A stretch of 64,000 nucleotides of DNA from an uncultured bacterium (GTDB taxonomy: Bacteria > Patescibacteriota > Minisyncoccia > Phycocordibacterales > Phycocordibacteraceae). The DNA lies in the NCBI GenBank assembly GCA_947085985.1, contig CAMTYL010000003.1:137239-201238 (forward strand), in the 5' to 3' direction. Of this stretch, positions 9,377 to 37,236 are shown one piece after another. Both the position numbers and the translations under genes were made by a program. Every line of letters begins with the position of its first letter. The stretch's first letter is position 1. The notes beneath the pieces are model-generated. The model saw nothing but the letters and a program-made list of their open reading frames with translations, searched no databases and had not been told where the DNA came from.

Positions 9377-9491
9377 GAAAATACGATAGCACGGCTCTGG
9401 TCAGGAATGTATGTGGGAACGCCGCCTCGCTTCTGCGGGGCGGCGCTTTCCTCATGTACTGCTTCGTCTGCAGCGATAGCCGCCAACTCGG

Positions 9492-20845: not shown

Positions 20846-21940
20846 CTACCCTTTCGCAGAGCCGTATATGAAAACGTTCTCTTCAAGGAAGCTTGGAATA
20901 AACTCCTTTTTCTCTGTCACATTCTGGAGATGCTTCTTGAACAAGGGCATAAGCACGTCGTACGTAGTGATTAGTGGAGCCTTTGCCTTTGGTACTCCCG
21001 CCTGAGAGCTCATCCAGCCGTCTTCCTTGAGAATAGGCACCGCAAGACGCATAAGCTCGTCATAGAATGCCGAAAGTCGAGTGAGGGCCTTACCGCTTCC
21101 TACAGGTTCATCGGTGAGGTCTATGATGATGCCGTCAAACTTCATGCAACGGTCCTTTGCCATGCGTAGGTACTGCATCGCGTCGCCCACGGACACCATG
21201 ACGTTCGGGTTACCGAACAATTTGTTCTGGTCAAAGTAGGTGCGAGCGCAGTAGATAACTTCCAGATCAAGCTCGGCAATAGTGATGCGAGCATTCGGGT
21301 TCTTCTCTAGTACTTTAGCCGCAACAAATCCGTCTCCTCCACCGAGAATAAGAATCTCTTTATCAGTAGGACGAAGCTCTTTGGTAATCGCTTCATCATA
21401 GATGTGCGTGTCACTCACTGACACCTGGGTGATGCCGTCAATAAGCATGGTCTTTCCAAACTTCTCCAAATCAAGCACCTGAATTTCCTGGAACGGACTC
21501 TTAATCTCTGCAAGTTTACGATGGACTGTTACGGTCTGCTTGGTGTTGTCCTTGTAAATAGGAATAGTGATGGTCTTTAGTTCAGCATAGCCACGATCAA
21601 CATCGTGAATCTTCTTGCGGGTGTGAGCCAGATGCTTTACCACGTGCTCAACAGCTAGATAGGTTTGCGATTCATTGGAACAGCTAAATACGTCAAACGC
21701 GGCGTAGCCATACTCGGGCCATGTGTGTACAGAAATGTGGGAGGTAGAAAGGACCAATACTCCCGTTACGCCGTGGGGCTCAAATTTATGGAAATGCGAG
21801 TGGAGAATCTCCATTTTGGCAGCATGCGCTGCACCCTCTAGAAGCTTCTTAAGCTCCGCCGCGTCGTCTAGGTCGTGGTAGTCACACCCGTATAGGTCAA
21901 ACAAATAGTGTTTTCCCTTGATTTTCTTAACTTTAATCAT
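20846..21940 (-). CDS. Fusion of S-adenosylmethionine decarboxylase proenzyme (SpeH-type) and spermidine synthase (SpeE)
   Basis: N-terminal GKHYLFDLYGC...GVTGVLVLSTSHISVHTWPEYGYAAFDVFSC is AdoMetDC with the self-cleavage Ser. The C-terminus has the spermidine synthase fold (ILILGGGDGF, ...ITIAELD...). Confidence 0.7.
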   Translation of the reverse strand: MIKVKKIKGKHYLFDLYGCDYHDLDDAAELKKLLEGAAHAAKMEILHSHFHKFEPHGVTGVLVLSTSHISVHTWPEYGYAAFDVFSCSNESQTYLAVEHVVKHLAHTRKKIHDVDRGYAELKTITIPIYKDNTKQTVTVHRKLAEIKSPFQEIQVLDLEKFGKTMLIDGITQVSVSDTHIYDEAITKELRPTDKEILILGGGDGFVAAKVLEKNPNARITIAELDLEVIYCARTYFDQNKLFGNPNVMVSVGDAMQYLRMAKDRCMKFDGIIIDLTDEPVGSGKALTRLSAFYDELMRLAVPILKEDGWMSSQAGVPKAKAPLITTYDVLMPLFKKHLQNVTEKKEFIPSFLEENVFIYGSAKG

Positions 21941-22109
21941 GAAAGTTGTATGTGGTTTAAGTATACCACGTATTTCTAGACTGACAAGCTATCGTGAACT
22001 CCCGCTTGCTAACGGGTTCCCTTCTTCACTCCCCTTTCCGCCTGGCACCGCACAGGTCTTTGGAAAGATAATAGCACCCCTTTCCCTGTTGCTGACGCTT
22101 CCTTACTGA

Positions 22110-22190
22110 TTAAAGGGTTTCGTCCGCGAGGAACGAACCAGCCTGGATGCTCCAGAGTTTGTGGTAGAGGCCGCCCTCTTGTTTCAGTAA
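22110..22190 (-). pseudogene. Orphan 3' fragment (about 26 codons) of an MsbA-like ABC exporter gene; repeat copy a
   Basis: It encodes ...GLLKQEGGLYHKLWSIQAGSFLADETL*, matching the C-terminus of the intact ABC gene (…DDLLKQEGGLYHKLWSIQAGSFIKDSEE*). About 50 of 57 nt are identical by eye to 37259-37315. Confidence 0.6.
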
Positions 22191-22194
22191 GCCT

Positions 22195-22223
22195 TTGACA
22201 AACACTAAATAAGTCTGTATTTT
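22195..22223 (+). promoter_or_regulatory. Promoter-like element upstream of trpS2
   Basis: TTGACA, 17 nt, TATTTT. AAGGAG lies 6 nt before the ATG at 22257. The element sits immediately after repeat copy a. Confidence 0.35.
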
Positions 22224-22256
22224 GCACTCAGACACCAATTCTTTAAGGAGAGCATT

Positions 22257-23255
22257 ATGCTCGAACAAACGGTTCTGTCGGGCATTCGGGCAACCGGGCG
22301 CCTTCACTTCGGAAACTACATTGGCGCGGTGCTCCAGTTTCAGAGACTGCAGCGTGTGAACAATCTGTCGATGTACTTCATCGCGGACTGGCATACACTC
22401 ACCACGCTTCGGAATCCAGATGAACTGCGCGGGAATGTGATCGAGATTGTGAAGGACTATCTGGCCGCTGGCCTTAACCCTGAGCTCTCGACCATCTACG
22501 CTCAGTCAAGTGTGCCCGAAATCGCTGAGCTGTCGCTGTACCTTTCAATGTTTCAGCCACTCGGTGAGCTCGAGCGCGTCCCAACGTTCAAGGATCTGGT
22601 TCGCAAGAACCCCGACAACGTTACGTTGGGACTGGTTACCTATCCAGTTCTGATGGCGGCCGACATCTTGGGCGTGCAAGCTACACTTGTCCCTGTCGGC
22701 GAGGATCAGATACCAAATGTAGAGCTTGCTCGGAATTTGGCTCAACGTTTCAATCATCAGTTCGGAGAGACGTTCACCTTGCCCGAAATGCTGAGTGAAA
22801 TGGTCAAGGTGCCTGGTCTCGATGGCGACAAGATGGGAAAATCGGACGCCAACAACGCGGTCGACATAAACTCCCCTATTAGCGAAATACGAGAGCGGTA
22901 TCTGAAGCGAGGAGCCAGCGACCCTGCGCGAAAACTGCGGACCGATCCCGGGAATCCGTACACCAAATGCCCGGCCATCTATCCGTTGCACGAGATCGTT
23001 ACTGATGGTGAGACGCAGACACGAGAAATCGCGAAACTCTGCCAAACTGCCGGCATCGGTTGTCAAGACTGCAAGAATCGGTTAGTGGACAGTATCGCTA
23101 CGGTCCTTGAGCCATTTCAGGAACGTCGTCGTGAGTTGACCGATAAAGACGACTACGCCAAGGAAGTCCTGCACGAGGGAGGGAAAAAAGCTAGGGCGCG
23201 AGTTGCCGAAACTCTTGCTCTCGTGCGCGATAAAGTTGGCATCATCATCTACTAG
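22257..23255 (+). CDS. Second tryptophanyl-tRNA synthetase paralog
   Basis: GIRATGRLHFGNYIGAV (HIGH-type) and KMGKS; 332 aa. It has clearly higher GC and lower identity to the first trpS. It lies in the accessory block. Confidence 0.8.
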   Translation: MLEQTVLSGIRATGRLHFGNYIGAVLQFQRLQRVNNLSMYFIADWHTLTTLRNPDELRGNVIEIVKDYLAAGLNPELSTIYAQSSVPEIAELSLYLSMFQPLGELERVPTFKDLVRKNPDNVTLGLVTYPVLMAADILGVQATLVPVGEDQIPNVELARNLAQRFNHQFGETFTLPEMLSEMVKVPGLDGDKMGKSDANNAVDINSPISEIRERYLKRGASDPARKLRTDPGNPYTKCPAIYPLHEIVTDGETQTREIAKLCQTAGIGCQDCKNRLVDSIATVLEPFQERRRELTDKDDYAKEVLHEGGKKARARVAETLALVRDKVGIIIY

Positions 23256-23311
23256 ATGCTGGAATCAAATTGGGGCCCGGTCATCTTGACCGGGCCCCTC
23301 TTGCTGATTGT

Positions 23312-24271
23312 CTACGCGCTCAGCTCACTTATTGCTCTTAGTGAGTCACGTTGCTCCGTGGGGAGTACGTTGCCAAGCACGTTGTTAAGAAGTGTAATTA
23401 CCCCTTGTGGAGGTTCAAGTGGATCGATGCACAGTACATATCCTTTTGGGCACCGGGCGATTTGTATCGATTTGGCCCGTTCGGAACCAAAAGCCCAGGT
23501 GACCATTTCGCGAAAGTTTTTTTCCACAAACCAGTGTGAGAGGAAGAAACCGTCACGGTTTGGATCTTGTCCTACAACCCTGATTGCACCAGTGCTATCA
23601 CTCGCGAGACAGGTGCCGAGAACCTTCTGAACCGTCTCCTGCCACAGCGGAGAAGGATGTGTGTGGAGAACAGCTCCAACACCAAGGTCGCGATACGTTC
23701 CAGCATTTAGGCTAACGGCGTCAAAGTTGAACTGCGACCCCAGCACCTTTCCATTCTTGAGATACTCATCGATACCGCTACCGTTGTGTCCATCCTCCTC
23801 GTATCGGCTTATAAGTGCTTGCGCACGGTATACGCCAATAATGACCCGGCGTGGTGCCTTAGGAATAAGCGAGACAGCTTGGAGGATCGATCCAGAAATC
23901 ACGTCGACTTCCACCCCTTGTTTCTGATAGTGGCTGAGCGAGAATTCCTTCGCGTACTGTGTCATAACCTTCGAGAGATCATTGAAGATCACGCGCTCAA
24001 CCGAGCGCCCCTCTGCGTGTAGAACATCAGTAACTACGCGTGGATCACGACAACCGTTAGCGCCACCAAGCGTGATAACGTCCCGAGCGACATAACCAGA
24101 GGCTGCGTAATTCTTGCAGAACTCTGTGACGGCATTGAGTTCGCCCTGATTGTCCTTTGTCATTGGCGCCTTCTGATATCCGGGCGCTTGTCTGTCCCAA
24201 AATACTACCTGACCCTCTGTGGTAAGGGTAGGAATAGGGAGCCAGCCTGAGTCGTTTTGGTTCTGCGTCAT
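23312..24271 (-). CDS. Hypothetical protein, possibly a Rossmann-fold SAM-dependent methyltransferase
   Basis: VITLGGANGCRD (motif I-like) followed by ERVIFNDLS (acidic post-I). Weak; 319 aa. Confidence 0.3.
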   Translation of the reverse strand: MTQNQNDSGWLPIPTLTTEGQVVFWDRQAPGYQKAPMTKDNQGELNAVTEFCKNYAASGYVARDVITLGGANGCRDPRVVTDVLHAEGRSVERVIFNDLSKVMTQYAKEFSLSHYQKQGVEVDVISGSILQAVSLIPKAPRRVIIGVYRAQALISRYEEDGHNGSGIDEYLKNGKVLGSQFNFDAVSLNAGTYRDLGVGAVLHTHPSPLWQETVQKVLGTCLASDSTGAIRVVGQDPNRDGFFLSHWFVEKNFREMVTWAFGSERAKSIQIARCPKGYVLCIDPLEPPQGVITLLNNVLGNVLPTEQRDSLRAISELSA

Positions 24272-24385
24272 CGAATGTATCCCTTTAATTACCGAGCTCG
24301 AATGAGCTGTTCTGCAGGGATCATACCTGTATTATACATTCCCGCAAGGTAAGTTGTCCCGCTAAGAAGTGAGCACACTAAGCTC

Positions 24386-25390
24386 CTATACTCTGCGCTC
24401 TATTACTGGAAGCGAGAGAAACATTGCTTCCTCGAGCAGGCTAGTCTTGCTCACTGGGTTAGTCATCATAATCGGGTGTGTATCGAATGGCGCAAGAATA
24501 GGATCGAGGCCAATACTGCTGATACCGAGCGGCGTGCCTTTCCTGACAAGTTGGAAATCTCTAACTTCTTCTGGGTCCGGGATTTTATACGACATATCTG
24601 GAAAAAGAATAGATCCTTCTATGAAGTACTCTTTGTACGTTCTTTCGGTTCTATTGGGAGCTCCTGCAATCATGCCCAAGTTTTGGAGCACCACAGTAGC
24701 CGTATCGATGGCGCACTTGAAAGACTCAGGTCTTTTATGAGAACCTGCTTCGATAGCAAAAACATCCGCGTCCTTGTCTGGTGAACCGTAAAAGGCGAAT
24801 GCTGGCTTTCCAACCTGCGCATTCTCAATATTGAGCAGTATGGTTTCGATGGGAATTCCGTGCAGAAGTTCGTCAGGCAATCCATCGCTGCGAGAGATAA
24901 TCATCGGAGACATTTCAGTAAGCGTGCTGTGCACATCTAGGGCGTGCGTAAACTCCTCCCACACTGACTGAAGTTCCTTGGCTCTACGGACCTCGCTTCG
25001 GGTATCGTCGCTAAGAGAGAGAACATTGGGCGGCAGTCTGTTCATGTTTACATCGACAAACCTTGCAAGTCGTTCTTCTGTTTCAGATTGAGCGCCCATA
25101 TACCTATCAGTCGCATCTATGTTGTTTAGAACCAAAAAAAGCTTTCCTTTTAAAAGTTGACTACCCTCGCTCAATCTATCAAAAAGGTTGTGGATTACAG
25201 CTAGGCCGCTTGGTTCATTTCCGTGCGTACAGGCAGTAATACCCAAGACAGGGCCAGAAACTCCACTCTCAATGCAGTAGACTCCTGGCACATTACGATA
25301 GTAAGAGCTTCTTATGCGCGTGAAAGTTTCAAGAAGCTCCCCATGAGATGGAACCTCATCAATAGTAGCTATCATAAGATTTAAGTACAC
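24386..25390 (-). CDS. Succinylglutamate desuccinylase / aspartoacylase (AstE/AspA) family zinc deacylase
   Basis: GITACTHGNEPSG (the family's H-G-N-E zinc-binding signature); 334 aa. Confidence 0.55.
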   Translation of the reverse strand: MYLNLMIATIDEVPSHGELLETFTRIRSSYYRNVPGVYCIESGVSGPVLGITACTHGNEPSGLAVIHNLFDRLSEGSQLLKGKLFLVLNNIDATDRYMGAQSETEERLARFVDVNMNRLPPNVLSLSDDTRSEVRRAKELQSVWEEFTHALDVHSTLTEMSPMIISRSDGLPDELLHGIPIETILLNIENAQVGKPAFAFYGSPDKDADVFAIEAGSHKRPESFKCAIDTATVVLQNLGMIAGAPNRTERTYKEYFIEGSILFPDMSYKIPDPEEVRDFQLVRKGTPLGISSIGLDPILAPFDTHPIMMTNPVSKTSLLEEAMFLSLPVIERRV

Positions 25391-25458
25391 TATACCTTAG
25401 AAAAATTTGGAATTAAAAGCGGGGGCTTGTGGCCCCCGCTCTCAAACAACAACTGTCC

Positions 25459-26166
25459 TCAGAATTTTCCAACAAAGAGGAAACCGTCGTTTGATTGACC
25501 ATCCTTGATATTGAGCTGATGCTCAAACCAGGAGGAAATGGCAGTGTCGGCGCACGAGGGTATTCTCTCGTACAAACACTGCCTGTACAGACCTTTACTC
25601 ACTCCAGTCACTGGATCGAATACTCCTTCCCTTTCGCTCATAAGCCTCGCGGCCTGACCACGAAGTTGCTCTGGAATACCCTCGAGTGGATTAGGCCAAA
25701 GTGACGAGGAAAAGCTTTTTGCGAGGCAGTACATCACCGGATTCTGGGTGGTGAAGGCTACTGTGTCCAGGGAACTTCTCTCACGAAGTGCTCCGACTAG
25801 GCGTGCGGCGGCCCGTTGCCCTTTGACTTTTGGCGACAAGGCTATTCCGTGAAGGTACATATAGCCCTCTCTCGGAAATAGACCAGACGCAAAGCCCAGA
25901 GCTTCTTCGTCAGTATGAAGGATCGCCAGAGCTGAGGCTCCGCTCAGATGCTGTTTCGTTCCGTCCCCAGAATCTTCATTCAAAGGGGTCCCGAAACTAT
26001 CAGCAGTGAGCTGTGTCAGATGGCTGATGAGTAGCTGTACACAGCTTTCATTCTCGTCGAGAGATACCGGGCTGTCCGTGGTGCCAAGAATGGATACTTG
26101 GAGCCCGGCGCTTTGCCCACACCGCTCGGCGTCTTGTAGCTTAAGGAAGTCCGCGAGGTAGGTCAT
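25459..26166 (-). CDS. Putative GNAT-like acyltransferase
   Basis: YMYLHGIALSPKVKGQRAAARLVGAL resembles the GNAT motif A acetyl-CoA loop. Weak. Confidence 0.35.
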   Translation of the reverse strand: MTYLADFLKLQDAERCGQSAGLQVSILGTTDSPVSLDENESCVQLLISHLTQLTADSFGTPLNEDSGDGTKQHLSGASALAILHTDEEALGFASGLFPREGYMYLHGIALSPKVKGQRAAARLVGALRERSSLDTVAFTTQNPVMYCLAKSFSSSLWPNPLEGIPEQLRGQAARLMSEREGVFDPVTGVSKGLYRQCLYERIPSCADTAISSWFEHQLNIKDGQSNDGFLFVGKF

Positions 26167-26298
26167 GCAAGGCCCCTTTCGTGGCTGTGCTGGTTCAGTC
26201 TGGAACAAGAGTACCAGGTACCCCAATCCTGTCAAACGTATACACAAAGCAGCGCCGCTTAGGAATAGCTTCCCAAGCGGCGCAATCTCCTCGTGTTC

Positions 26299-26736
26299 TT
26301 AGTAGATCATCCCGGTTATTTCAGCGATGCATTCAACCGTTCGCCAAGGCTTGTCGCAATCTGTTTCCTCGAGCAGTCCAGCAAATTTTCCTCTCTTAAG
26401 CCAAACTGTCTTCGCGCCGCACTGATTACCAAAGCGGATTTCCTCGTGCAGATAGTCGCCGATAACATACACAGAGTTGTGTCCCTCTCCTGTGCGCTCA
26501 ACTAACTCCGCGAACATCTCTCTAGTCTTCTCCTCTACAAACGAAACAGAGGAAAAGAAGCTCAAGATACCGTGGGATTCAAGGATGTGTTCACGACCCG
26601 GTTCCTTGCGAGAGACAAGGTGCATTTCAGCACCGGACCCTCTTAGCCAGGTGAGCATCTCTAGGACGCCGGGAAGGAGACTGTTTGTGTCGGGGTCGTA
26701 CAAGGTACGGTTAAGATCAAATATCACACAAGTCAT
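26299..26736 (-). CDS. HAD-superfamily hydrolase
   Basis: N-terminal DxN nucleophile motif (CVIFDLNRTL) and C-terminal VIGDxxxxD motif (VYVIGDYLHEEI). Confidence 0.55.
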   Translation of the reverse strand: MTCVIFDLNRTLYDPDTNSLLPGVLEMLTWLRGSGAEMHLVSRKEPGREHILESHGILSFFSSVSFVEEKTREMFAELVERTGEGHNSVYVIGDYLHEEIRFGNQCGAKTVWLKRGKFAGLLEETDCDKPWRTVECIAEITGMIY

Positions 26737-26809
26737 TCTTCTCGCCCTTTTGTTGCTCTCGTCTAAGCCTACGATATCTGTGCTCTTACGCAACTAGGTA
26801 GATAAGATT

Positions 26810-26849
26810 CGTCGGTAAGGAACGAACCAGCCTGGATGCTCCAAAACCT
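26810..26849. repeat. Repeat copy b: ABC-exporter 3'-end-derived direct repeat
   Basis: tcgtcggtaaggaacgaaccagcctggatgctccaaaac. Read on the minus strand it gives WSIQAGSFLTDE, the ABC C-terminal motif. It is in the same orientation as copies a, c and d. Confidence 0.6.
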
Positions 26850-26867
26850 ATAGCTTTTCTTACATAT

Positions 26868-26896
26868 TTGACAAAAATTGGAGCTACAGTATCATA
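26868..26896 (+). promoter_or_regulatory. Promoter-like element after repeat b, upstream of the GCS2 gene
   Basis: TTGACA, 16-17 nt, TATCAT. Followed by a GC hairpin (agccccctc-tcatgt-gagggggct at about 26995-27025) and AAGGAG 7 nt before the ATG at 27071. Confidence 0.3.
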
Positions 26897-27070
26897 TTTA
26901 TATGTACGCGTATTTCGGCCAGCATCATCACATCAATGCACTCTCGTTGAGAGAGGATTGCTTTGATGTTGCGTAGGCTTAGATACCCGCTCCCCCACCA
27001 AAGTAGCCCCCTCTCATGTGAGGGGGCTTTTGCGTTGCAAAAGTACGGTTCTTTAACAAGGAGCACGCAC

Positions 27071-27961
27071 ATGCGTGAAGAACTTCGTTCGTACTTCACT
27101 GATGGACTGCGTCGTCGCGCAGGACATACGGTTGGAGTTGAAGCGGAAACGTCATTTCTCGATGGCGATTCTCAACTTCCCATTTCGCTTGCCACGTCTC
27201 AGAACATGTTCTCTGAGCTTGCGCAACGTAACTGGCATATCGAAAGTACTCGCGGGGGATTGATTACTAGCCTGCGAAGTGAGCGTGGAGATATGCTCAA
27301 CTACGAGCTCGGCAGACAGAATCTTGAGATATCGGCGGCGCCTGGCATTGATGGAGCGTCGGGAATCATGAGTGCGCAAGTGGCGCTCTCTGAACTGTAT
27401 GAGGTAGCACGGCTCTTTGGTGCCGCCCCCTCGTTCTCTCCCATGCTTAGTACTAAAGAGGACTTGCTGGTGATTCCTGACGAGCGTGATGCTATTTGGC
27501 TTCAACTTGATGGGCGTGAGGCTCTTATGCCTCTCGCCACAATCTCTTCGGTCCAGTTCACTGTTGAGGTTTCGCTTGAAAACGCCATTCCTGCTATCAA
27601 CCGCTTGAATGAGGTGTTGCCGGATTTCCTCCGCGAGTATCCTCAAGAGAAGGTGTGGCGAGAGTACATAGCGCAATCGAAAGCTGGGTACGAGGAATCG
27701 CGCTACGGCGGCCCCCGTTACTTCAAGTCGCTTGATGACTACATTGAGCAGCTTGGAAAGTACAGGGTCGTCGCAGGCGCCTGTCTTACTCGGCAAGTTC
27801 CGATTGAGAATGTCTCTCTCTTCATTCGTTCAGTCTGGTGGTACTTCCGACTTCGCCGGTACGGCGACCGCATGTGCATCGAGGTGCGCCCGATTGCTCG
27901 GGTGCATGATGCTGATATCGCGGATAAGCTCGAAATGGTGTTGAACATCATTCACTCGTGA
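27071..27961 (+). CDS. Carboxylate-amine ligase, glutamate-cysteine ligase family 2 (GCS2/YbdK-like)
   Basis: N-terminal GHTVGVEAETSFLD resembles the GCS2 TVGVEEE motif. About 300 aa, the typical size. Paired with a GGCT gene. Confidence 0.45.
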   Translation: MREELRSYFTDGLRRRAGHTVGVEAETSFLDGDSQLPISLATSQNMFSELAQRNWHIESTRGGLITSLRSERGDMLNYELGRQNLEISAAPGIDGASGIMSAQVALSELYEVARLFGAAPSFSPMLSTKEDLLVIPDERDAIWLQLDGREALMPLATISSVQFTVEVSLENAIPAINRLNEVLPDFLREYPQEKVWREYIAQSKAGYEESRYGGPRYFKSLDDYIEQLGKYRVVAGACLTRQVPIENVSLFIRSVWWYFRLRRYGDRMCIEVRPIARVHDADIADKLEMVLNIIHS

Positions 27962-28048
27962 TACCTGAGGGGAGTGCGCTCCCCTCTTTCATCGAGCATT
28001 TCAGGTTCACTGAAATGTTCGACAAAAGATTACTAAGTATCAAAGTGT

Positions 28049-28528
28049 ATGAACAAAAGTGTACTAGTGTTTGGGTACGGTTCCCTCATGAATCCTAGAA
28101 GCCTAGCGCTGACCTTGCCAGGAAAACGCACAGTGACCCCCGCAGTTCTGCAGGGTTACCGACGAGTGTGCAACGTCCCAGTAAATGGTTACGCCTATCT
28201 TAATCTTGAGGCATGTGAAGGGTTTAGTGTAGAGGGTGTGCTTGTTCAGGTGTGGCAAGACGAACTGCCTGCACTGTTTAAGCGCGAGGAGGGATACGAG
28301 TTTGTAAATGTAACTTCTGCGATAGAAGGCATTGTGAGCAAGACGTTTGCCTTTATTGCAAAGTCCGGATGTAGAGAAGATCTCGCTGTCCCAAGAAGTT
28401 ACCTACAAACATGCTTTGCCAAAATGGAGCCCACAAAAAACGAACAGACTTTCCTGGAATTAAGAATGCCCGGAGGAGTATATGAAGACCTAGATAATCC
28501 CGTTTATCAGAACTATGTTCTGGACTAA
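28049..28528 (+). CDS. Gamma-glutamyl cyclotransferase (GGCT/AIG2-like)
   Basis: VLVFGYGSLMNP is the YGSL signature with a catalytic Glu further on; 159 aa. Confidence 0.65.
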   Translation: MNKSVLVFGYGSLMNPRSLALTLPGKRTVTPAVLQGYRRVCNVPVNGYAYLNLEACEGFSVEGVLVQVWQDELPALFKREEGYEFVNVTSAIEGIVSKTFAFIAKSGCREDLAVPRSYLQTCFAKMEPTKNEQTFLELRMPGGVYEDLDNPVYQNYVLD

Positions 28529-28530
28529 AC

Positions 28531-28568
28531 CTCTTCGTCGGTAAGGAAGGAGCCAGCCTGGATGCTCA
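28531..28568. repeat. Repeat copy c: ABC-exporter 3'-end-derived direct repeat
   Basis: tcgtcggtaaggaaggagccagcctggatgctcaaaag begins 3 nt after the GGCT stop. It encodes (minus strand) LSIQAGSFLTDEE. Confidence 0.6.
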
Positions 28569-28821
28569 AAAGTTGTTAAGGTTTTGCGCGAGTTTGATAA
28601 ATTAGAGAGTCGCAGTATGAAATAAGTATGTTCGCGTAGTTTGCAAGTGCTCGGTACCGTTTACCTTAAGGCGCCAAGATAGAACCACTCCCCTCCTGCC
28701 TTGACGTAAGTCTTGGGGAATAGAATGACCCCCTCTCTATAGTGTAAGAGTATGTACTGCAGTAACCGCAAGCGTCCCCGCACGTAGTTAGTGCCCCTCA
28801 GATAGTGCTATCCTGTGATAT

Positions 28822-29685
28822 ATGAAAAAGCGTCTTTCAATCAATTTGCTTACTTCCAGAGTCTTTTGGGAAAGTATGCCACTGATCATCGCCGAAATAG
28901 CGGAAAGAGAGCATTATCTTTCCATATTCGACGACAGACATATGCCTACCCTTGAGGGTTTGTTCGATTGTGATGTTCTCATCGACATGAGTGCAATTAC
29001 TGATGTGGAGTTCTACGAGAAATTGAAGACTGAATCTCTACGGAGAAAGATGGCTGGACAGAAAATTCCTCTCATGGTCGACAGTCCTGAGGCAGTAATG
29101 AATTCCATGGATAAAAGAAAAACACATGCGCTTATGCCGGATCTGGTTCCAGAATCCTATGACTTAGATGGTGTTAATAACGAGAGTATGATTGCCAAAT
29201 TCTTTGATGACGAATACCTTCTTATAAAAGACCCCTTCGGATGGCAAGCGAGGGGAATAGACCGACTATCACCAAAAGCAGCACTCGAAAAGTACCGAGT
29301 CTCAAAGGGGCTAATCGCTCAAAAATATATTCCATTCACGGACGGTGTAGGAAGAGTCCTTACCTTGAATCATGCTTCTGATTTTGAGATCATGTGCGCC
29401 TATTTACGAATACCGGACTCGTGGAGAACTGGTGAAGGTACTGAATCTCAATACAAATTGGTAGAAATTGACGAAAAACTCCGAGACTTTGCGAAAACTG
29501 CCGCAATACGGTCTGGGCTTTATTTAAACGGTATCGATTACATTTACAAAGATGGACAGTATGTTCTTTTAGAAGTGAACGCCGCGGCAGGACTCCGCGA
29601 TCCTTATGATGAGTTCAAAATAGATACTCCAAAGATTTTTCTTGATCACATCGAAAGAAACTCCAGAGTCGCTCTTGGTGATTAG
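28822..29685 (+). CDS. ATP-grasp ligase (RimK-like small amino-acid ligase)
   Basis: C-terminal ...YVLLEVNAAAGL (E-x-N catalytic loop) and a central nucleotide-binding region; 287 aa. Low-GC gene. Confidence 0.6.
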   Translation: MKKRLSINLLTSRVFWESMPLIIAEIAEREHYLSIFDDRHMPTLEGLFDCDVLIDMSAITDVEFYEKLKTESLRRKMAGQKIPLMVDSPEAVMNSMDKRKTHALMPDLVPESYDLDGVNNESMIAKFFDDEYLLIKDPFGWQARGIDRLSPKAALEKYRVSKGLIAQKYIPFTDGVGRVLTLNHASDFEIMCAYLRIPDSWRTGEGTESQYKLVEIDEKLRDFAKTAAIRSGLYLNGIDYIYKDGQYVLLEVNAAAGLRDPYDEFKIDTPKIFLDHIERNSRVALGD

Positions 29686-30497
29686 TAGGTTCTTAAAGTA
29701 GATTTCTGAAACAGCGTATACCTGGTTTTGCCGTAAAAGTCGTAAAACGGAAAATACTCTGCGAGAACTGCACTGGCCCCAAAGTCCAGTAGCTGTTGGC
29801 CAAAATTTGAACCTGTTTCCATATACATTATTAAGTTCACCTCGTTTTCGATTGCCAAACTGAATACTACATCCGCAGTGTTCGACACAAAGATCATTCC
29901 TGTTGCAATAATGTACTGAGCCGACTTGATACGTTCTGTTATGTCGGACCCTGCTCCGTGTTCAATAGTCTTGCTACTAATCTGCAAGCCTATTTTTTGA
30001 GGTTCCAAATCGAGCACGGACAAATCGATATCTCGCGCAGCAGCCTCTTCTATGATTTCAGTTGCTGCACCAATTAACAGCACACTAGAGCCTGATGGAA
30101 TTTGATCCATTAACTTGCTAGCTCGCTGGCGTGCTTTTTCTCGCAGATTACCTACTAAGAAAGAGGGTACGTGTTCGATATCTTCTTCATTAAGGAGGCA
30201 GTACATGGCATCAGCAAGTGCTACGCGCATGTAAAGAGGAATGTCTTCTTTCAGAATATCTGGAATTTCATTATTAACAAATTTGCTTAAGCCATAATCG
30301 ATTTCCTCTTGGAAATATGAAAATCCATACGCATTCTCAAGAAGCACGAGACAGAAATTCATGTCAGTGAAAACTGAATCGCAATTCTTAATAGTATACA
30401 GTGACTTACCAAGAATGATGTTGTCGATACGGAGGTTCTCGGTTTTCTGGGCCAAGGAATGAGTCCCCTTGCTGAGCAGAGTTTCGAGTATGCTCAT
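29682..30497 (-). CDS. Hypothetical Rossmann-like protein (DUF364-like?)
   Basis: Central SSVLLIGAATEIIEEAAARDIDLSVLDLEP beta-alpha-beta signature. Translationally coupled with the upstream ATP-grasp gene (4-nt overlap). Confidence 0.3.
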   Translation of the reverse strand: MSILETLLSKGTHSLAQKTENLRIDNIILGKSLYTIKNCDSVFTDMNFCLVLLENAYGFSYFQEEIDYGLSKFVNNEIPDILKEDIPLYMRVALADAMYCLLNEEDIEHVPSFLVGNLREKARQRASKLMDQIPSGSSVLLIGAATEIIEEAAARDIDLSVLDLEPQKIGLQISSKTIEHGAGSDITERIKSAQYIIATGMIFVSNTADVVFSLAIENEVNLIMYMETGSNFGQQLLDFGASAVLAEYFPFYDFYGKTRYTLFQKSTLRTY

Positions 30498-31873
30498 ACG
30501 GAAGTTAGTGCGTGATTTCGTACACTGGCAATTAGTTCTCCGGCCCAGGGTTCAATTTCATACTTTTCTCTTGCGATAATCGTCTTCTTCAGAATAATTC
30601 TTGCTACAATTCCTCCTGGGGGTAGTTCGCGACCAGTGTGCGCACTGTAGGTTACTAATATTTCTCCGTCCTTCAAGTCTTTAACTCGAAGCAAGAAATT
30701 TACTTTTCTGAACGCATCGTTTTCTAGATGGTAGATTCCAGGCTCTAGGTATCCAGCAACAGTAACTGTGGAATGCGAATTATTATAGACGATGACTTGC
30801 GCATAATCATGTTCAGACAAGTCTATCTCTCCGTTAAGAAACTCCAGTCCATCTACATAATCTAGCACAGAAAATTCTTCGAGATGCTTTATTATGTCGG
30901 GGAGCAGACCTTGGTCTTTCTGCATACCAGTCAGCAAGCGCGTTAGACCCACAAGTCTGGTATTTAATTCTTGAACATATACGATGTTAGTTTCTTTGTC
31001 CCAGAGAAAGTCAACCCCGAGTATGCCCCTGTAACCCTTGCCTCTCGCGTGCTCCGCTATTTTCTCGCACATACTCCGCACGGTTTTCACGAGTGAGGCA
31101 CTGAACAAGCTCTGGTTGGTGTCATTTCCTGCAAACTTGAAAGGCATTGATGTCAGCTCAGGAAATCCTACTAGTTGTAAAAAAGGACCCCGAATTAGTG
31201 TTTTTTCTTCAAGCACGGTTAGATGAACAGAAATTGGTATGTTATTTCTCAAATACTTTGTTGCCTTAAATACACCCCGCAGGCCCTGTGCCTTTTCAAA
31301 AATATCTTCGATTGAACCAACTAAGAATGTGTCTTCACCAGAAACACCCAAGGAGCCTTGCAGGATGAAGGGCACCCCCAAGCCCTCTTTACATTCTTCA
31401 AATGCCATTTCGAGATCTGTCGACACGTCTTTGAAGACCAGGGAGGAGTTACATGGCAAAGCCAGTTCTTGGCAAATAGAGGGCAGATTCAGTTTATCGC
31501 CAAGAACTTCTTGGAGCCGATATGGTGCAAGCGACATTTGAATCTCCGCTGTGTGGAGAAGCTCGTCGATATTGTGGTTCATAAAGAAAAAAAGCACCGT
31601 AGAATTGACTCTATCGGGAAGCGCACGGGACAGAAATTCCTGATCAGCAAGCATAATCTCAACGGCTTTGTCACTATCGATGTCCTTTGCCAAGTCCTTA
31701 TTAAGGTACGAGTCAATATTCCATGCTTGCCTCAAGTGCCGGTATAAAGAATCGTCATCATAGGTGACTATCTTAAAATTCTGCAGCAAGTCCAAAAGTT
31801 CTACCGACATAAATGGAGTTTTCTCAAAAAAGATAACTTGGCAATCTGGCGAACTGGACCCCTCCGTGTTCAT
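30494..31873 (-). CDS. Large ATP-grasp domain protein
   Basis: GILGVDFLWDKETNIVYVQELNTRL (ATP-grasp E-x-N Mg-binding loop); 459 aa with N-terminal pre-ATP-grasp region. Confidence 0.5.
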   Translation of the reverse strand: MNTEGSSSPDCQVIFFEKTPFMSVELLDLLQNFKIVTYDDDSLYRHLRQAWNIDSYLNKDLAKDIDSDKAVEIMLADQEFLSRALPDRVNSTVLFFFMNHNIDELLHTAEIQMSLAPYRLQEVLGDKLNLPSICQELALPCNSSLVFKDVSTDLEMAFEECKEGLGVPFILQGSLGVSGEDTFLVGSIEDIFEKAQGLRGVFKATKYLRNNIPISVHLTVLEEKTLIRGPFLQLVGFPELTSMPFKFAGNDTNQSLFSASLVKTVRSMCEKIAEHARGKGYRGILGVDFLWDKETNIVYVQELNTRLVGLTRLLTGMQKDQGLLPDIIKHLEEFSVLDYVDGLEFLNGEIDLSEHDYAQVIVYNNSHSTVTVAGYLEPGIYHLENDAFRKVNFLLRVKDLKDGEILVTYSAHTGRELPPGGIVARIILKKTIIAREKYEIEPWAGELIASVRNHALTSV

Positions 31874-33330
31874 GGACGTGGGCGCATAAGTGGAAAAATC
31901 TGGGCTTCACGAATGCTTTTTCCAGCAAGGAAGCTGAATAAACGCTCGGAAACACCGAAACCAAACGTTGGTGGCATACCATACTCCATGGCTTCGACAT
32001 ACTCAAAGTCAGCCATCTGCGCTTCTTCGTCCCCAGCATCTCGCAGTGTTTGCTGGTCCTCAAATCGCTTGCGCTGGTCAGCGGGATCGTTTAATTCGTT
32101 GAATGCTTTTCCGAGTTCGCTACCCCCAATCAAAATTTGAAAGCGGTCAACGACACGAGAGTCGCCCATGGACTTTTTTGCTAAAGGTTCAAGGTACACA
32201 GGCATGCCGGTCATTATCGCTGGGCCACCGATAGTCTTACGAATCTTCTTCCATAAAAGGTCTATACCACGACCTGTATCAATGTTTGACTCATAAGGAA
32301 TACCATGTTCTTGCAAAAGAGAAACTACATTTTCGAGCTCAACGTCCCTCGGATCGATTCTGTACTCTTTCTGCATAAGCTCGTTAAAATCATACCTTTT
32401 CCATTCGGAGTTCAGATCAACATCGAAATCATTAATCTGGAAACGGGACGTACCAAACGTGGACTCCGCGACAGTTCGGTAAAGCTCGATAAGCATTGGT
32501 ACACCTGCGCGTGCATCCTGATACGCTTCGTAAAACTCGAACGAAGTATAGTCATTGGCGTGCTCGTACGACATGCCTTCATTTCTAAATATGCGGCCTA
32601 TTTCAAAGGTCTTTGGAAGTCCACCAATCATCAGCTTCTTTTGCCATAACTCTCCTACTGATATGCGAAGGAAAACATCAATGTCTAATGAGTTGTGATG
32701 GGTAACAAACGGCCGCGCCTCAGCTCCACCGGTCATGGTTTCAAGAACTGGGGTCTCGACTTCAATAAAATCCCTCTCAAGCATAAAGGTTCTGACTGCA
32801 TTCCAAAAGACCGAGCGCTTCTTAATAAGTTCAGTCACATCGGAATCTAGCAGCATGTCGATGTAACGTTTTCGGTAGCGTTCATCCTCATCCTTTAGCC
32901 CAAACCATTCGTCCGGAATAGGCCTTAAACTTTTTGCAAGCATGCGCCACTCGGCTACCATGAGAGAATTCACCCCACGTTTCGTAGTGAAAGCAGTTCC
33001 AGAGACTTCAATAAAATCACCATTGTCTACAACATCCATAAAAAGACCCGTACTCTCATTACCGAGCGCATCCTTTTTAATAAGCACTTGAACACGCCCA
33101 CTGCCGTCAAATATGTCAAGAAAGATAATTCCTCCTTGATTTCTGAGGGCCATAATTCGACCAGCAATTGTTACGTGCTCTTCGGAAGAAACGAGCAAGC
33201 TGAAGGACTCCAAAAATTTAGCATTATCATGCGTACGTTTTGACTCGGCCGGATACGGGTCAATTCCTTGCTGCCTAAGCAAGTCGAGTTTCTTGAACCG
33301 TTCGGCCCGGACATCGTCTAGAAAAGCCAT
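31870..33330 (-). CDS. lysS: Lysyl-tRNA synthetase, class II
   Basis: OB anticodon-binding N-terminus. Motif 2 (FEIGRIFRNEG), motif 3 (EYGMPPTFGFGVSERL); 486 aa. Low-GC (about 40%) gene. Confidence 0.85.
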   Translation of the reverse strand: MAFLDDVRAERFKKLDLLRQQGIDPYPAESKRTHDNAKFLESFSLLVSSEEHVTIAGRIMALRNQGGIIFLDIFDGSGRVQVLIKKDALGNESTGLFMDVVDNGDFIEVSGTAFTTKRGVNSLMVAEWRMLAKSLRPIPDEWFGLKDEDERYRKRYIDMLLDSDVTELIKKRSVFWNAVRTFMLERDFIEVETPVLETMTGGAEARPFVTHHNSLDIDVFLRISVGELWQKKLMIGGLPKTFEIGRIFRNEGMSYEHANDYTSFEFYEAYQDARAGVPMLIELYRTVAESTFGTSRFQINDFDVDLNSEWKRYDFNELMQKEYRIDPRDVELENVVSLLQEHGIPYESNIDTGRGIDLLWKKIRKTIGGPAIMTGMPVYLEPLAKKSMGDSRVVDRFQILIGGSELGKAFNELNDPADQRKRFEDQQTLRDAGDEEAQMADFEYVEAMEYGMPPTFGFGVSERLFSFLAGKSIREAQIFPLMRPRP

Positions 33331-33450
33331 ATACTAGTATTGTTTATTATACCAGAAACTGAATGTTTATCTAATTTAACCTGCTCGTCTTGTAGGCCTA
33401 GACATCGAGTCGTGTATCATTACTCGTGAATACTTTTTACTCAATCCCCT

Positions 33451-34698
33451 ATGAATACTAAAAGAATACCTTTTTCGCTCGACCAAATCCAGGCACTCGC
33501 GCGCGAGCACGCAACACCATTTTATGTATACGATGAAGCTGGAATTAGAAGTTCCGTCCGAACGCTGTTTAAGCTCTTTTCGTGGAATGCGGGCTTTAGA
33601 GAGTATTTTCCGATAAAGGCAACGCCAAACCCTGCGATTCTGAAGATTCTGGCAGAGGAGGGTTGTGCCGCTGATTGCTGCTCAGTGCCGGAGCTCCTGA
33701 TTGCCGAACAAGTCGGACTAATAGGAGAGTCAGTCATACTTACATCAAACTTTACCGGGCCAGAAGAGTTCAAGAAAGCTAGAGAAATGGAAGCGATAAT
33801 AAACCTTGATGATCCAAATCACCTGCCCTATCTCGACGACTTGGCGGGTCTGCCAGAGGTATTGTGCCTCCGATACAATCCCGGACCGTTTGGCCAAGGC
33901 GGCTCAGAGACATGGGCACATCTGACTGAAGACAAATTCGGTATGAAAAAAGATCAGTTGTTTGAAACGTATATTCGTGCGAGAGAGAATGGAATCCGTC
34001 GATTCGGACTGCACATGATGATCATGTCCAACGATCTTGATGGCGAGCATTTAGTAGAGACTGCCCGAATTTGTTTCGAGACTGCTGTGGAATTGCGACG
34101 AATCTTCGGAATCAATCTTGATTTTATTGACTTGGGAGGCGGTGTCGGGATACCGTATCGACCCGACCAGGAAGCAATCGATATGGCGACCGTCGTTGAG
34201 AGAATTCGTACCATGTATGAAGAACACCTATATAGTGGAAATTTAGAACCTTTGCGACTTTTCACGGAATTTGGTCGATTTGTGGTCGGACAGCATGGCT
34301 ATCTTGTCGCCACTGTTAGGCACATAAAAGAAAGTTATAAACATTTTGCTGGATTAAACGCGACCATGGCAGACCTTATGCGACCTGGAATGTACGGCTC
34401 GTATCACCACATCAGCATTCTAAATAAATTGGGAGAGAAATCAGAAGTAATGTATGACGTGGTGGGTTCGTTGTGCGAAAATAACGATAAATTTGCGATT
34501 GATCGTCAACTCCCACGGCTTGATCCGGGTGATGTGGTAGTTATTCACGACGCTGGGGCGTACGGTCGCGGAAAAGGCTTTAATTTCAATGGAAAATTAC
34601 GTCCAGCTGAATTTTTATTTGAGAAAGACGGTGTATCCTTCAAAAAAATCCGCCGAGCTGAGACGTCCGAAGACTATTTGTCGACTCTTCGAGTGTGA
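33451..34698 (+). CDS. PLP-dependent fold-III decarboxylase (Orn/DAP/Arg decarboxylase family; LysA- or carboxynorspermidine-decarboxylase-like)
   Basis: FYVYDEAGIR...PIKATPNPAILKILAEEGCAADCCSVPEL (PLP-Lys region), GGGVGIPY, EFGRFVVG; 415 aa. Confidence 0.7.
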   Translation: MNTKRIPFSLDQIQALAREHATPFYVYDEAGIRSSVRTLFKLFSWNAGFREYFPIKATPNPAILKILAEEGCAADCCSVPELLIAEQVGLIGESVILTSNFTGPEEFKKAREMEAIINLDDPNHLPYLDDLAGLPEVLCLRYNPGPFGQGGSETWAHLTEDKFGMKKDQLFETYIRARENGIRRFGLHMMIMSNDLDGEHLVETARICFETAVELRRIFGINLDFIDLGGGVGIPYRPDQEAIDMATVVERIRTMYEEHLYSGNLEPLRLFTEFGRFVVGQHGYLVATVRHIKESYKHFAGLNATMADLMRPGMYGSYHHISILNKLGEKSEVMYDVVGSLCENNDKFAIDRQLPRLDPGDVVVIHDAGAYGRGKGFNFNGKLRPAEFLFEKDGVSFKKIRRAETSEDYLSTLRV

Positions 34699-34890
34699 CT
34701 ACAGGCTATATAATTGTCTGACTTAATAGCGCGGTTAAGATAAGAAATTAGTCTCTAGGGATGATTTCAAAGTCCGAGATTTTGAAATATGTTACGTTTT
34801 GAAAATCTCAAAAACTATACAAAAAATGCTAGTAGTCGGGTTCGTAAGTTAACATACTTGCATATACTCTCAATAATGATGGCAGATGAA

Positions 34891-36039
34891 CTAAAAAAAT
34901 CTTGCTAGCTTAAATCCGTCTATGTCGATAGTGCTGATACCATCAATTACGAGTTCAGCAAGTATCTCACCGACTGCTGCAGAGTGCTTGAAGCCATGAC
35001 CGGAACATGGAGATGCAAGAATTACTGAAGGGTGTTCCGGGTGTTGATCGATCACAAAGTCATGATCAGGTGTGAGAGTGTAGAGACATGGAACCGCCCT
35101 TACGCAGCGACTGCTCAATCCTCTAATGTTTGGAGCTATGAAAGTGTCATAGGCGGATTGTTTCTCTTCCTCACTGACATCTCGACTAGTCTCGTCAACA
35201 GACGAGACTAGTTCGTCATCCGCACACGCTATTTTTAGCCCGCCGTGCGGACCGTCCAAGGCCGGGAATCCATTCAAGTGCCAGATAAAGATTGGGAATT
35301 TGTCAGGAAGAAAACTTTCTACCGGTCCGTCAATATCAAACCAGTACATCACCTGACGGTGTACAGTAAAAAGCTTTTGATATTTCTCCTCGAGAAGTCG
35401 CGAGAGCCAAGGGCCAGCGCTGATTATAAGCCTATCAGCAGTGTACTCTCCCAAATTCGTCTTTACTGTTACTCCGTCACGGCCTTCTGAAAAACTCACC
35501 ACTCTCTCATTCATGTTTATTTGAGCGGCATATTTTGCAGCAAGAGAAAGTTGAGCAGTCAGACATTCTTCAGCACGGAGAAACCCAGCATTAGGCTCAT
35601 AATAACCAATATCGCCGTCTCGTATAATAAATTGTGGAAATCGTTCTCGAAGCTCCATTGTGTCTAGTATTTCATGGTCAATCTGATATTTCTTCGCCGC
35701 CGCTACTGTTGCACTGAAGAAATTATTTACTGCGTCCTTCTCCTGCTTACCTATGTTTGAAATAATAATTCCACCCGTAATTGACAATATTTTTTTTCCA
35801 GTCTCCTTCTCTATCTCTTCCCACAACTTATAAGAACGAAGCGACAGTGGAGTATAGTGCTCACCTTCCCCGATTGCTTGACGTGTGATGCGAGTGTCTC
35901 CGTGTGATGATCCGTAGGCGTGTGGGGTCGAAAATTGCTCGATGCCCAATACTCTATTACCTTTCTTTGCTAATTGATACAAAGCTGCGGACCCAGTAGC
36001 TCCTAGACCTACGACAATGGTATTAAACTTAGTAGTCAT
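34891..36039 (-). CDS. FAD-dependent amine oxidase of the monomeric sarcosine oxidase / N-methyltryptophan oxidase (MSOX/MTOX) family
   Basis: VVGLGATGSAALYQL (GxGxxG). HGYGSSHGDTRITRQA (MSOX signature). C-terminal CSGHGFKHS (covalent-FAD Cys region). Confidence 0.65.
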   Translation of the reverse strand: MTTKFNTIVVGLGATGSAALYQLAKKGNRVLGIEQFSTPHAYGSSHGDTRITRQAIGEGEHYTPLSLRSYKLWEEIEKETGKKILSITGGIIISNIGKQEKDAVNNFFSATVAAAKKYQIDHEILDTMELRERFPQFIIRDGDIGYYEPNAGFLRAEECLTAQLSLAAKYAAQINMNERVVSFSEGRDGVTVKTNLGEYTADRLIISAGPWLSRLLEEKYQKLFTVHRQVMYWFDIDGPVESFLPDKFPIFIWHLNGFPALDGPHGGLKIACADDELVSSVDETSRDVSEEEKQSAYDTFIAPNIRGLSSRCVRAVPCLYTLTPDHDFVIDQHPEHPSVILASPCSGHGFKHSAAVGEILAELVIDGISTIDIDGFKLARFF

Positions 36040-36052
36040 ACATGAAGCAGCG

Positions 36053-37099: not shown

Positions 37100-37236
37100 C
37101 ATAGACAAGCGAATAGTACAATGAAAAAGAAACACATTCTAGCCAATCGACACGCCCGTAGCGACGTCTTGTGTCTTAATGATTGGAGGAAGTCCGTACG
37201 CACCTTCTATAGTTTGCAGGAGTTCTGGGTCCATGG

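Follow-up and report, generated by a model that had tools for sequence, protein, structure and literature searches.

Positions 26850-28530 of a 64,000-nt stretch of DNA from an uncultured Patescibacteria genome (GenBank contig CAMTYL010000003.1, positions 137,239 to 201,238 of the forward strand; the whole stretch is called the window here) probably form a single operon that encodes a histidine-starvation-induced 'amide make-and-break' enzyme pair. The operon would read, in order, as a promoter, a leader peptide of 24 codons with a His-His-His run, a three-way RNA switch, an open reading frame (ORF A) for a glutamate-cysteine-ligase-fold protein, a structured spacer, and a second frame (ORF B) for a gamma-glutamyl cyclotransferase. 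An earlier annotation made from the letters alone (the sequence-only reading) had described the segment as holding only two genes; ORF A and ORF B are real, while the 24-codon leader ORF at 26902-26976 was overlooked, and with it the link to histidine, which consists of the His-codon leader ORF and of a HisR gene and HisR operators in relatives. Comparisons were made with 62 related loci (handles beginning with L), comprising 59 from a scan of one genome per species and three closer metagenomic contigs. Nearly all of the 59 scanned loci are labelled as Patescibacteria metagenome-assembled genomes (MAGs); the few labelled Bdellovibrionales or Pseudomonadales are probably mis-binned or mislabelled assemblies.

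The leader lies on the plus strand behind a sigma-70-like promoter (TTGACA-16 nt-TATCAT, 26868-26895), which matches 11 of 12 consensus positions and is kept in L060, L061, and L062. The ATG of the leader ORF (MYAYFGQHHHINALSLREDCFDVA*, beginning MYAYFGQHHH; 26902-26976) is located 6 nt past the -10 box, which ends at 26895, and the window leader mRNA is probably leaderless. Many leader ATGs in the other loci are found 6-8 nt past a -10 box, a spacing which suggests that many of these mRNAs are leaderless as well. The His codons (26923-26931) fall within the part of the ORF that overlaps hairpin 1 (26921-26971, plus strand), which contains region 1 (CACUCUC, 26939-26945) and region 2 (GAGAGAGG, 26951-26958). 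Region 2, in the 3' half of hairpin 1, can pair alternatively with the 5' arm of the terminator to give an antiterminator. The intrinsic terminator (27005-27036, plus strand) has a 9-bp GC stem and a 6-nt loop, then UUUUGCGUU; its GC hairpin (27005-27028) reads AGCCCCCTC-TCATGT-GAGGGGGCT, then TTTTGCGTT, with a terminator-like scan score, and the ATG of ORF A follows 42 nt after the terminator. The leader between promoter and ORF A measures 170 nt and, taken as a 181-nt stretch, folds better than its shuffles (z = -4.1). The Shine-Dalgarno (SD) sequence of ORF A, AAGGAG (27058-27063, plus strand), is immediately preceded by a conserved GUUCUUUAA. In the window (27045-27063) and in most loci, this element follows a small hairpin that overlaps the terminator U-tract, and the hairpin with GUUCUUUAA may be an SD-sequestering helix forming a translational control layer. 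When Rfam was searched over the window, only a tRNA passed the gathering score; in E-value mode, positions 26780-27100 gave nothing better than E of about 3, with no T-box, His_leader (RF00514), or riboswitch among the results. Literature searches for attenuators in the candidate phyla radiation (CPR) returned nothing relevant.

A recognisable version of this leader precedes ORF A in nearly every locus. From just past the promoter to the start of ORF A, the leader DNA of the window, L060, L061, and L062 is near-identical, down to the wobble positions of the mini-ORF, at 71-75% identity of the ORF A proteins. Across the loci the leader is arranged as CAUCAUCAC (the His codons), region 1 (CUCUC), a variable loop, region 2 (GAGAGAGG-GUUG), and a stop codon, followed by a 20-30-nt spacer, a GC-rich terminator, the small hairpin, GUUCUUUAA, and the SD sequence. 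A covariance model was built from 11 loci and searched over 985 kb of fetched sequence. It placed the element directly ahead of ORF A in about 47 of the 62 loci, and its only other matches were one weak hit on the plus strand and lower-scoring reverse-strand hits to the same elements; the match in the window (26925-27036) scored 27 bits with an E-value of 0.0017. Across 46 distinct plus-strand rows, 89% of the pairs in hairpin 1 and the terminator were canonical and 19 of 26 pairs showed double compensatory changes, in an alignment that was derived from the covariance model and is hence fitted to its structure. The corresponding controls were a mean of 0.82 (maximum 0.83) for column shuffles and 0.45-0.57 for slid alignments. 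The loop of hairpin 1 together with region 2 is complementary to the 5' arm and loop of the terminator, and both loops co-vary across lineages. Each leader pairs with the 5' half of its own terminator at -15.3 kcal/mol, compared with -11.0 kcal/mol for the terminators of other loci (permutation p <= 1e-4, 32 non-redundant loci). By these predicted pairings, the layout is the 1:2 / 2:3 / 3:4 arrangement of classical attenuators.

The reading frame of the His codons was examined in the 15 non-redundant loci that have no hisR gene (see below). An ATG ORF was present in the His frame in 14 of the 15 and in each of the other two frames in none (0/15 each), with 4-40 codons ahead of the His codons and a stop codon 5-45 nt 5' of the terminator. 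The N-termini of the leader peptides vary while HH, HHH, or HYH is kept, as in MYAYFGQHHH... (window), MNLTFAKSYHH..., MNIRFSTNWHYH..., and MKRLISNFCHH.... Substitutions that break pairs of the outer stem are CAU/CAC (His) and UGA/UAA (stop) exchanges, all synonymous, which points to coding constraint. Nascent transcripts ending at the terminator loop were folded for 40 loci with two ribosome masks. With the ribosome placed at the His codons, the antiterminator took up the terminator 5' arm in all 40 loci; with the ribosome at the stop codon, the arm was captured in 0 of 40 and free in all 40. With a His-codon ORF, a terminator, and mutually exclusive pairings in place, the predicted leader looks like a ribosome-mediated transcription attenuator. 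If it works in the classical his/trp manner, scarce charged tRNA-His would stall the ribosome at codons 26923-26931 so that region 1 is covered; region 2 (GAGAGAGG) would then be freed to pair with the terminator 5' arm, the terminator at 27005-27028 would be blocked, and ORF A and ORF B would be transcribed. With plentiful histidine, the ribosome would reach the leader stop codon just past region 2 and mask that region, and the terminator would form and halt transcription. The proposal of the sequence-only reading that a GC hairpin ahead of the ligase gene could be an attenuator has thus held up: conservation, covariation, antiterminator pairing, and masked folding all mark the hairpin at 27005-27028 as an attenuator-type terminator.

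The same leader could in principle sense a metabolite directly, as a riboswitch or by means of an antiterminator that binds a protein (one like HutP or TRAP, or HisR itself if it acted on RNA), with the small ORF being incidental. A conserved structure joined to a terminator as expression platform would suit such a device, as would the sequence identity of the window group at mini-ORF wobble positions. We regard this as unlikely, since no Rfam family matches, the hairpin-1 loop is not conserved and co-varies with the terminator loop in the manner of an attenuator rather than of an aptamer, the ORF is confined to the His frame, and synonymous changes of His and stop codons break pairs.

An independent link to histidine comes from the gene directly upstream on the same strand, which in 33 of the 62 loci encodes a TrpR-family protein (PF01371) of about 100 aa. 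These proteins score above the cutoff of TIGR02531 YerC/YecD (68-74 bits against 42.2). YerC of B. subtilis is the histidine repressor HisR, with the operator consensus cacTTTAnnnnnnTAAAgtg, a 20-bp palindrome (Ashniev et al. 2022, PMC9413887). Operator-like sites such as CACTTTAGTTTGATAAAGTG, sometimes in tandem, overlap the -10 region in most hisR-bearing loci, and the core CTTTA-N6-TAAAG is present at the hisR promoter in 27 loci, implying hisR autoregulation on the evidence of these sites. In at least eight loci, the operator core was also found 7-8 nt upstream of the start of a convergent gene for an AstE/AspA-type deacylase (L004-L007, L017, L019, L020, and L026; e.g. L006 11745-11760), and this deacylase appears from its operators to be a second HisR target in Saccharibacteria-like genomes. 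The CPR hisR frame reads past the TrpR domain as ...(R/K)LHHH(N/D)...RRGLS* into hairpin 1 and stops just after region 2, with the terminator hairpin 19-30 nt beyond the stop codon in the hisR-bearing loci; solved Firmicutes homologues (3frw, 3g1c, 3kor) have no HHH tail. Because the hisR tail runs through the His codons into hairpin 1, the end of hisR takes the part that the mini-ORF plays in hisR-less lineages, the window included. In many relatives, therefore, the switch would be read by the ribosome finishing hisR, whose ...LHHH... C-terminal tail would be the leader peptide, and the HisR operators would constitute a second control layer at the DNA level. Neither a TrpR-family ORF in the 64-kb window nor a HisR operator in the window was found, and literature searches for HisR in Patescibacteria returned nothing relevant. 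In six loci of Collierbacteria and Kaiserbacteria type (L002, L008, L013, L021, L025, and L057), a histidyl-tRNA synthetase (HisRS) gene is located no more than about 1.3 kb from ORF A; genes for glycyl-tRNA synthetase and for proteins like lysyl-tRNA synthetase (LysRS) are likewise frequent neighbours of ORF A, and the proximity of HisRS supports the histidine link weakly.

ORF A (27071-27961, plus strand; 296 aa) starts with an ATG 7 nt past AAGGAG, and its homologues start at the same Met. The sequence-only reading had called it a YbdK/GCS2-like ligase and had named PF04107 as the hidden Markov model (HMM) by which to confirm this. That check failed: no Pfam or NCBIfam model, PF04107 included, matched at E <= 0.01, and a sequence search of the PDB gave no match. 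Direct family searches being empty, alignment, profile, and structure comparisons were needed. The 348 homologues are about 295 aa long and, where named, are 'hypothetical protein' entries from Patescibacteria; they derive from Kaiserbacteria, Paceibacterota, Saccharimonadales, and others, and 2 of 120 carry a precomputed PF04107 match. A profile of 34 homologues matched plant glutamate-cysteine ligase (GCL) in the PDB at an E-value of 0.012, with GxExE and ExGxQxE in register. Against 1.84 billion representative proteins, the profile retrieved just 137 clusters (50% identity), and its weakest matches were genuine PF04107 proteins (scores against PF04107: P0260, 142 bits; P0249, 103; P0252, 61; P0246, 54). 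Alignment of the ORF A family with P0260 using hhalign gave a probability of 88% and an E-value of 3e-6. ORF A has the catalytic fold of the glutamine synthetase/GCL type.

The motifs of this superfamily are GhExE in strand 1, acidic residues in strands 2 and 3 (the Mg/ATP site), [HQD]x[NH] in strand 4, and Ex[RK]x2D in strand 6 (Iyer et al. 2008, PMC2588565). ORF A keeps GhExE as G22-V-E24-A-E26 and the acids of strands 2 and 3 as E79 and E86, all invariant in 34 sequences and aligned to the GCL motifs. At the metal position of strand 4 it has Q162, a Gln as in the aligned plant GCL, but T164 in place of N/H (Q162-F-T164). In strand 6, E271-V-R273 is kept and the Asp is displaced (D280). Of the original assignment, the GCL fold and most of the metal- and ATP-site motifs are therefore retained, whereas the PF04107 match is not; alignment of the GCS2 catalytic residues likewise preserves GhExE, E79, and E86 and loses the strand-4 N/H and the position of the strand-6 Asp. 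By sequence comparison, ORF A is a compact homologue of the carboxylate-amine ligases, in a small family of its own found almost only in Patescibacteria MAGs. It reads as a cytosolic, ligase-like protein, and an active carboxylate-amine ligase of the glutamate-cysteine-ligase type, dependent on ATP and Mg, is its most likely identity. A 214-aa antisense ORF (27152-27796) recurs in other loci only since it lies opposite the conserved ORF A.

ORF B (28049-28528, plus strand; 159 aa) is a GGACT/AIG2-like gamma-glutamyl cyclotransferase with the motif VFGYGSLM, in which YGSL occupies residues 10-13. It matched PF06094 (GGACT) at 29.1 bits against a cutoff of 22.8 over residues 7-106, and this match together with the YGSL motif confirms the cyclotransferase assignment made earlier. 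Among 13 operon-linked homologues of ORF B, Y10-G-S-L13 is invariant and E80 of RE(E)GY (REEGY) is present in 92%; we take E80 to be the catalytic Glu of human GGACT/GGCT. In public gene calls ORF B is shorter, at 131 aa (P0124), and would lack YGSL; the alignment of homologues backs the 159-aa frame starting at 28049. The 87-nt spacer between ORF A and ORF B contains a conserved double hairpin (27967-28022, plus strand; 27967-27986 and 27992-28022) with z = -6.4, compensatory changes in L001, and UUUCAU after the first hairpin. Possible roles for this structure are partial termination, RNA processing, or a second point of control.

Neighbours of ORF A were classified using family-specific HMMs and counted over the 62 loci. 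A GGACT gene is located directly downstream on the same strand in 16 of them, with the window as the 17th. An AstE/AspA-type deacylase gene, usually convergent and 30-36 nt away, occurs within 3 kb in 14 loci; that of the window is 1.7 kb upstream. A class-I glutamine amidotransferase (GATase) with a peptidase-C26 match follows ORF A in 11 loci, with two further GCS2 proteins next in 7-9 of these, an M20 peptidase is adjacent in eight, and in one locus an ATP-grasp protein and a class-II GATase occupy the partner place. At least one amide-cleaving neighbour was present in 35 of the 44 loci whose sequence extends 1.5 kb or more to either side of ORF A. The ORF A-GGACT pair is retained in L060 and L061 (ORF A 71-74% identical) with every flanking gene different, and it spans several Patescibacteria lineages. 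Since the pair is retained while its flanks change, it travels as a unit, as the sequence-only reading had supposed. The make-and-break cycle proposed at the same time fared less evenly: another amide-cleaving enzyme usually replaces an absent GGACT, while the gamma-glutamyl substrate is a matter of inference only. The partner of ORF A is thus functionally replaceable, and this is the strongest support for the make-and-break idea, whose chemistry is inferred.

Two observations were made on less common neighbours. A different operon occurs in L028, L031, L032, L037, L042, L045, and L052: ORF A is followed, at about 1-3.4 kb downstream, by a C26-like class-I GATase and by GCS2 proteins of 256 and 470 aa, so that the same leader of the His type precedes three consecutive GCL-fold ligases. 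In the closest genome (L001), a gene of the enolase-superfamily MR/MLE family (8418-9521, minus strand) is divergent from ORF A; the family includes N-acyl amino-acid racemases and dipeptide epimerases. A racemase of this kind as a conserved partner, in a D-to-L N-acyl amino-acid route, was rejected because just two loci carry such a gene, the second 6 kb away.

Expression at low histidine is what both regulators predict. Given also a ligase-like ORF A and an amide-cleaving partner, a starvation-induced acylation/de-acylation pair that acts on some amine or carboxylate is proposed. ORF B would convert a gamma-glutamyl-type amide to 5-oxoproline and the free amine, and ORF A and ORF B together would carry out a transient acylation and de-acylation that helps the cell to obtain or spare histidine, comparable to PuuA/PuuD or to GCL with GGCT. 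Patescibacteria are generally held to lack amino-acid biosynthesis. Within the loci examined, HisR and a His-codon attenuator in Patescibacteria converge on no visible target other than ORF A and its partner. That ORF A and its interchangeable amide-cleaving partner form a previously unrecognised route of histidine acquisition, by salvage or non-canonical synthesis, is a tentative extension of the proposal, and one that we hold to be possible rather than probable. It is improbable that ORF A is instead a Dop-like ATP-dependent amidase which frees an amine (possibly histidine) from a gamma-glutamyl or acyl conjugate, in which case ORF B and the hydrolases would act in parallel with it and not in sequence.

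Several results weigh against a histidine-controlled ligase and amide-cleaving pair. When free RNA was folded to minimum free energy, 30 of 40 truncated transcripts already adopted the antiterminator, and full-length folds always favour the terminator, even with region 1 masked; the masked folds of nascent transcripts described above are a proxy for co-transcriptional folding. Given both results, the switch would have to be kinetic, by analogy with the trp attenuator, in which the choice between terminator and antiterminator is kinetic. The leaders have just 2-3 His codons, a few loci have one or no recognisable His (L015, L021), and the pairing statistics come from a model-fitted alignment. 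The window has neither hisR nor an operator, and its histidine link is the leader alone. ORF A has no Pfam or NCBIfam match, and of two superfamily motifs only a part survives (QxT for [HQ]x[NH], and ExR without D at +5). A ligase would be induced at low histidine with no obvious way to make histidine. ORF A contains 1.5% His, which is not significantly below the 2.4 +/- 1.45% of neighbouring gene families, and depletion of His in ORF A as a starvation signature was rejected for this reason; the GGACT is very low in His (0.44%), and the content of the two proteins taken together supports a starvation role weakly.

The segment is located exactly between two copies of a 38-nt repeat, as noted in the sequence-only reading: copy b (26808-26845, minus strand) on one side and copy c (28534-28571, minus strand) on the other, with promoter, structured leader, ORF A, spacer, and ORF B between them. 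A 33-nt pattern matched at 22120, 26809, and 28535 (0 expected from shuffles), and a repeat search gave copies a at 22119, b at 26808, and c at 28534 with a weaker copy d at 37246. Wider stretches of an ABC exporter 3' end were identified on the minus strand at 22113-22193, 26805-26852, 28531-28575, and 37240-37323. Copy d is the live C-terminus of an MsbA-like exporter ORF (37237-39030, minus strand, ...LLKQEGGLYHKLWSIQAGSFIKDSEE*), and copies a-c are relics (WSIQAGSFL..) which encode fragments of that C-terminus. Copy a reads GLLKQEGGLYHKLWSIQAGSFLADETL*; copy b, a relic of the last ~14 codons, reads ..FWSIQAGSFLTDES on the minus strand and lies in the divergent spacer that separates the promoter of ORF A from a minus-strand HAD-GNAT-AstE gene row; copy c reads ..LLSIQAGSFLTDEEV* and lies 6 nt past the ORF B stop codon. 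In L001, an intact exporter gene ends (...LWSIQAGSFLTDTE*) 8 nt from the GGACT stop codon; together with the position of copy c, this identifies copy c as a relic of that junction. A low-GC block (28.6-37.2 kb) now separates copy c from the intact exporter gene.

The similarity of copies b and c continues downstream into a promoter and the opening codons of the leader, and the duplicate after copy c reaches ~28640, indicating that a 'relic + promoter' module was duplicated ahead of the RimK-like gene at 28822. The leader of the c copy before this gene retains only the promoter and ATGTTCGCGTAG and has no unusual structure (z = -0.3). The 38-nt repeat as an operator or attC-like site was ruled out, because it has no match in the related loci and its translation is an ABC-gene 3'-end relic.

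A mobile gene cassette, with copies b and c as recombination sites for excision and re-insertion of ORF A-ORF B, would account for four copies in the same orientation that bound gene blocks within 15 kb, for a gene order unlike that of L001 and L060, and for the lower GC content of the c-d block (0.44). We consider this quite improbable: the repeat is coding sequence from the 3' end of an ABC exporter gene, it is absent from all 62 related loci, essential genes (for LysRS and for synthetases of the TrpRS/TyrRS type, i.e. tryptophanyl- or tyrosyl-tRNA synthetase) are inside the 'cassettes', and the L001 pair simply abuts an intact ABC gene. No integrase, transposase, or recombinase was seen between copies a and d. 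As recombination boundaries of the cassette named in the sequence-only reading, the repeats found no support; being absent from related loci and having no recombinase between a and d, they are treated as rearrangement scars, i.e. ABC-exporter 3'-end relics, rather than as demonstrated recombination sites. Least probable of all is that the leader hairpin is the leftover terminator of a lost upstream hisR, with ORF A constitutive from its own promoter and unregulated, for although the hairpin follows the hisR stop codon in 33 of 62 loci as an ordinary gene terminator would, the sole good promoter of the window is upstream of the leader with the terminator just 42 nt from the ATG, the mini-ORF, hairpin 1, and antiterminator complementarity are kept in lineages without hisR, and the leader is conserved more than the protein.

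In the surrounding 16 kb (20846-37135), genes for amide-bond and polyamine enzymes are abundant and are interleaved with TrpRS/TyrRS-type and LysRS genes. They include an S-adenosylmethionine decarboxylase-spermidine synthase fusion, AstE/AspA, GNAT, and HAD proteins, a RimK-like ATP-grasp and a second, PRK06524-like ATP-grasp, a LysA-like decarboxylase dependent on pyridoxal phosphate, a DAO-family FAD oxidoreductase, and an aldo-keto reductase.

The ORF A family is a conserved 'hypothetical protein' beside housekeeping genes in many Patescibacteria genomes and was previously without a functional handle. It is assigned to the histidine-starvation response by regulatory signals of two independent kinds, one being HisR (gene and operators) and the other the His-codon attenuator, and this tie yields a testable hypothesis on amino-acid limitation in reduced, host-dependent bacteria. 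The proposed design is unusual in that the C-terminal tail of the repressor itself would double as the sensing peptide of the attenuator, and the swapping of partner enzymes provides a natural experiment for working out the chemistry. As judged from Rfam and the open literature searched, the attenuator would be an undescribed class of cis-regulatory RNA for the phylum. The GCL-fold family, the architecture of the His attenuator, and the content of the regulon are new, and the attenuator would act in the manner of the his leader.

The closest known devices are the his leader-peptide attenuators (E. coli and Salmonella hisL, RF00514). Common to these and the present leader are a short ORF whose tandem His codons closely precede alternative hairpins and a Rho-independent terminator, the use of the terminator 5' arm in the antiterminator, and the read-through expected at scarce His-tRNA. 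The present leader differs in having no Rfam match, only 2-3 His codons where E. coli hisL has seven, and many ORFs that are apparently leaderless. Its target is a GCL-fold ligase rather than genes of his biosynthesis or transport, and in roughly half of the loci a full-length HisR gene contributes its C-terminal tail as the sensing ORF. Candidate His attenuators have been described in the Bacillus cereus group, Peptostreptococcaceae, and Erysipelotrichales in a study that did not cover Patescibacteria (PMC9413887). The HisR (YerC) regulon described there has in common with the relatives of the window the TIGR02531 protein and the published 20-bp palindrome on the hisR promoter; the targets here are ORF A and the AstE/AspA-type deacylase instead of the his operon, hisXYZ, and yuiF. 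In contrast to the Firmicutes HisR structures, CPR HisR has an HH(H) tail, and the window has lost both hisR and the operator.

Among ligases, the nearest relatives are group-3 (plant/proteobacterial) glutamate-cysteine ligase, YbdK, and other PF04107 proteins, which are 350-450 aa long compared with 296 aa for ORF A and about 15% identical to it. In contrast to GCS2, ORF A falls under the PF04107 and NCBIfam thresholds and belongs to a discrete family of 137 clusters at 50% identity. ORF B shares with the GGACT/AIG2-like gamma-glutamylamine cyclotransferases the PF06094 match, YGSL, and the conserved Glu in RE(E)GY, and differs from them in being short and in carrying conserved PRSY and NPVY motifs peculiar to this CPR subfamily. 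Literature searches for a link between GCS2 or GGCT and histidine returned nothing relevant. Established pairs for gamma-glutamylation and deglutamylation are PuuA/PuuD, IpuC/IpuF, BtrJ/BtrG, and the GCL and GGCT of the gamma-glutamyl cycle, and we know of no histidine regulation in any of these systems. As in the present operon, the gene for an ATP-dependent amide-forming ligase adjoins that of an enzyme which takes the acyl or gamma-glutamyl group off again. The ORF A operon, unlike pairs of the PuuA/PuuD type, has no conserved oxidoreductase or other 'middle' enzyme, and across ORF A loci the remover is interchangeable from genome to genome, being a GGACT, a C26 GATase, an AstE/AspA-type deacylase, an M20 peptidase, or, once, a class-II GATase.

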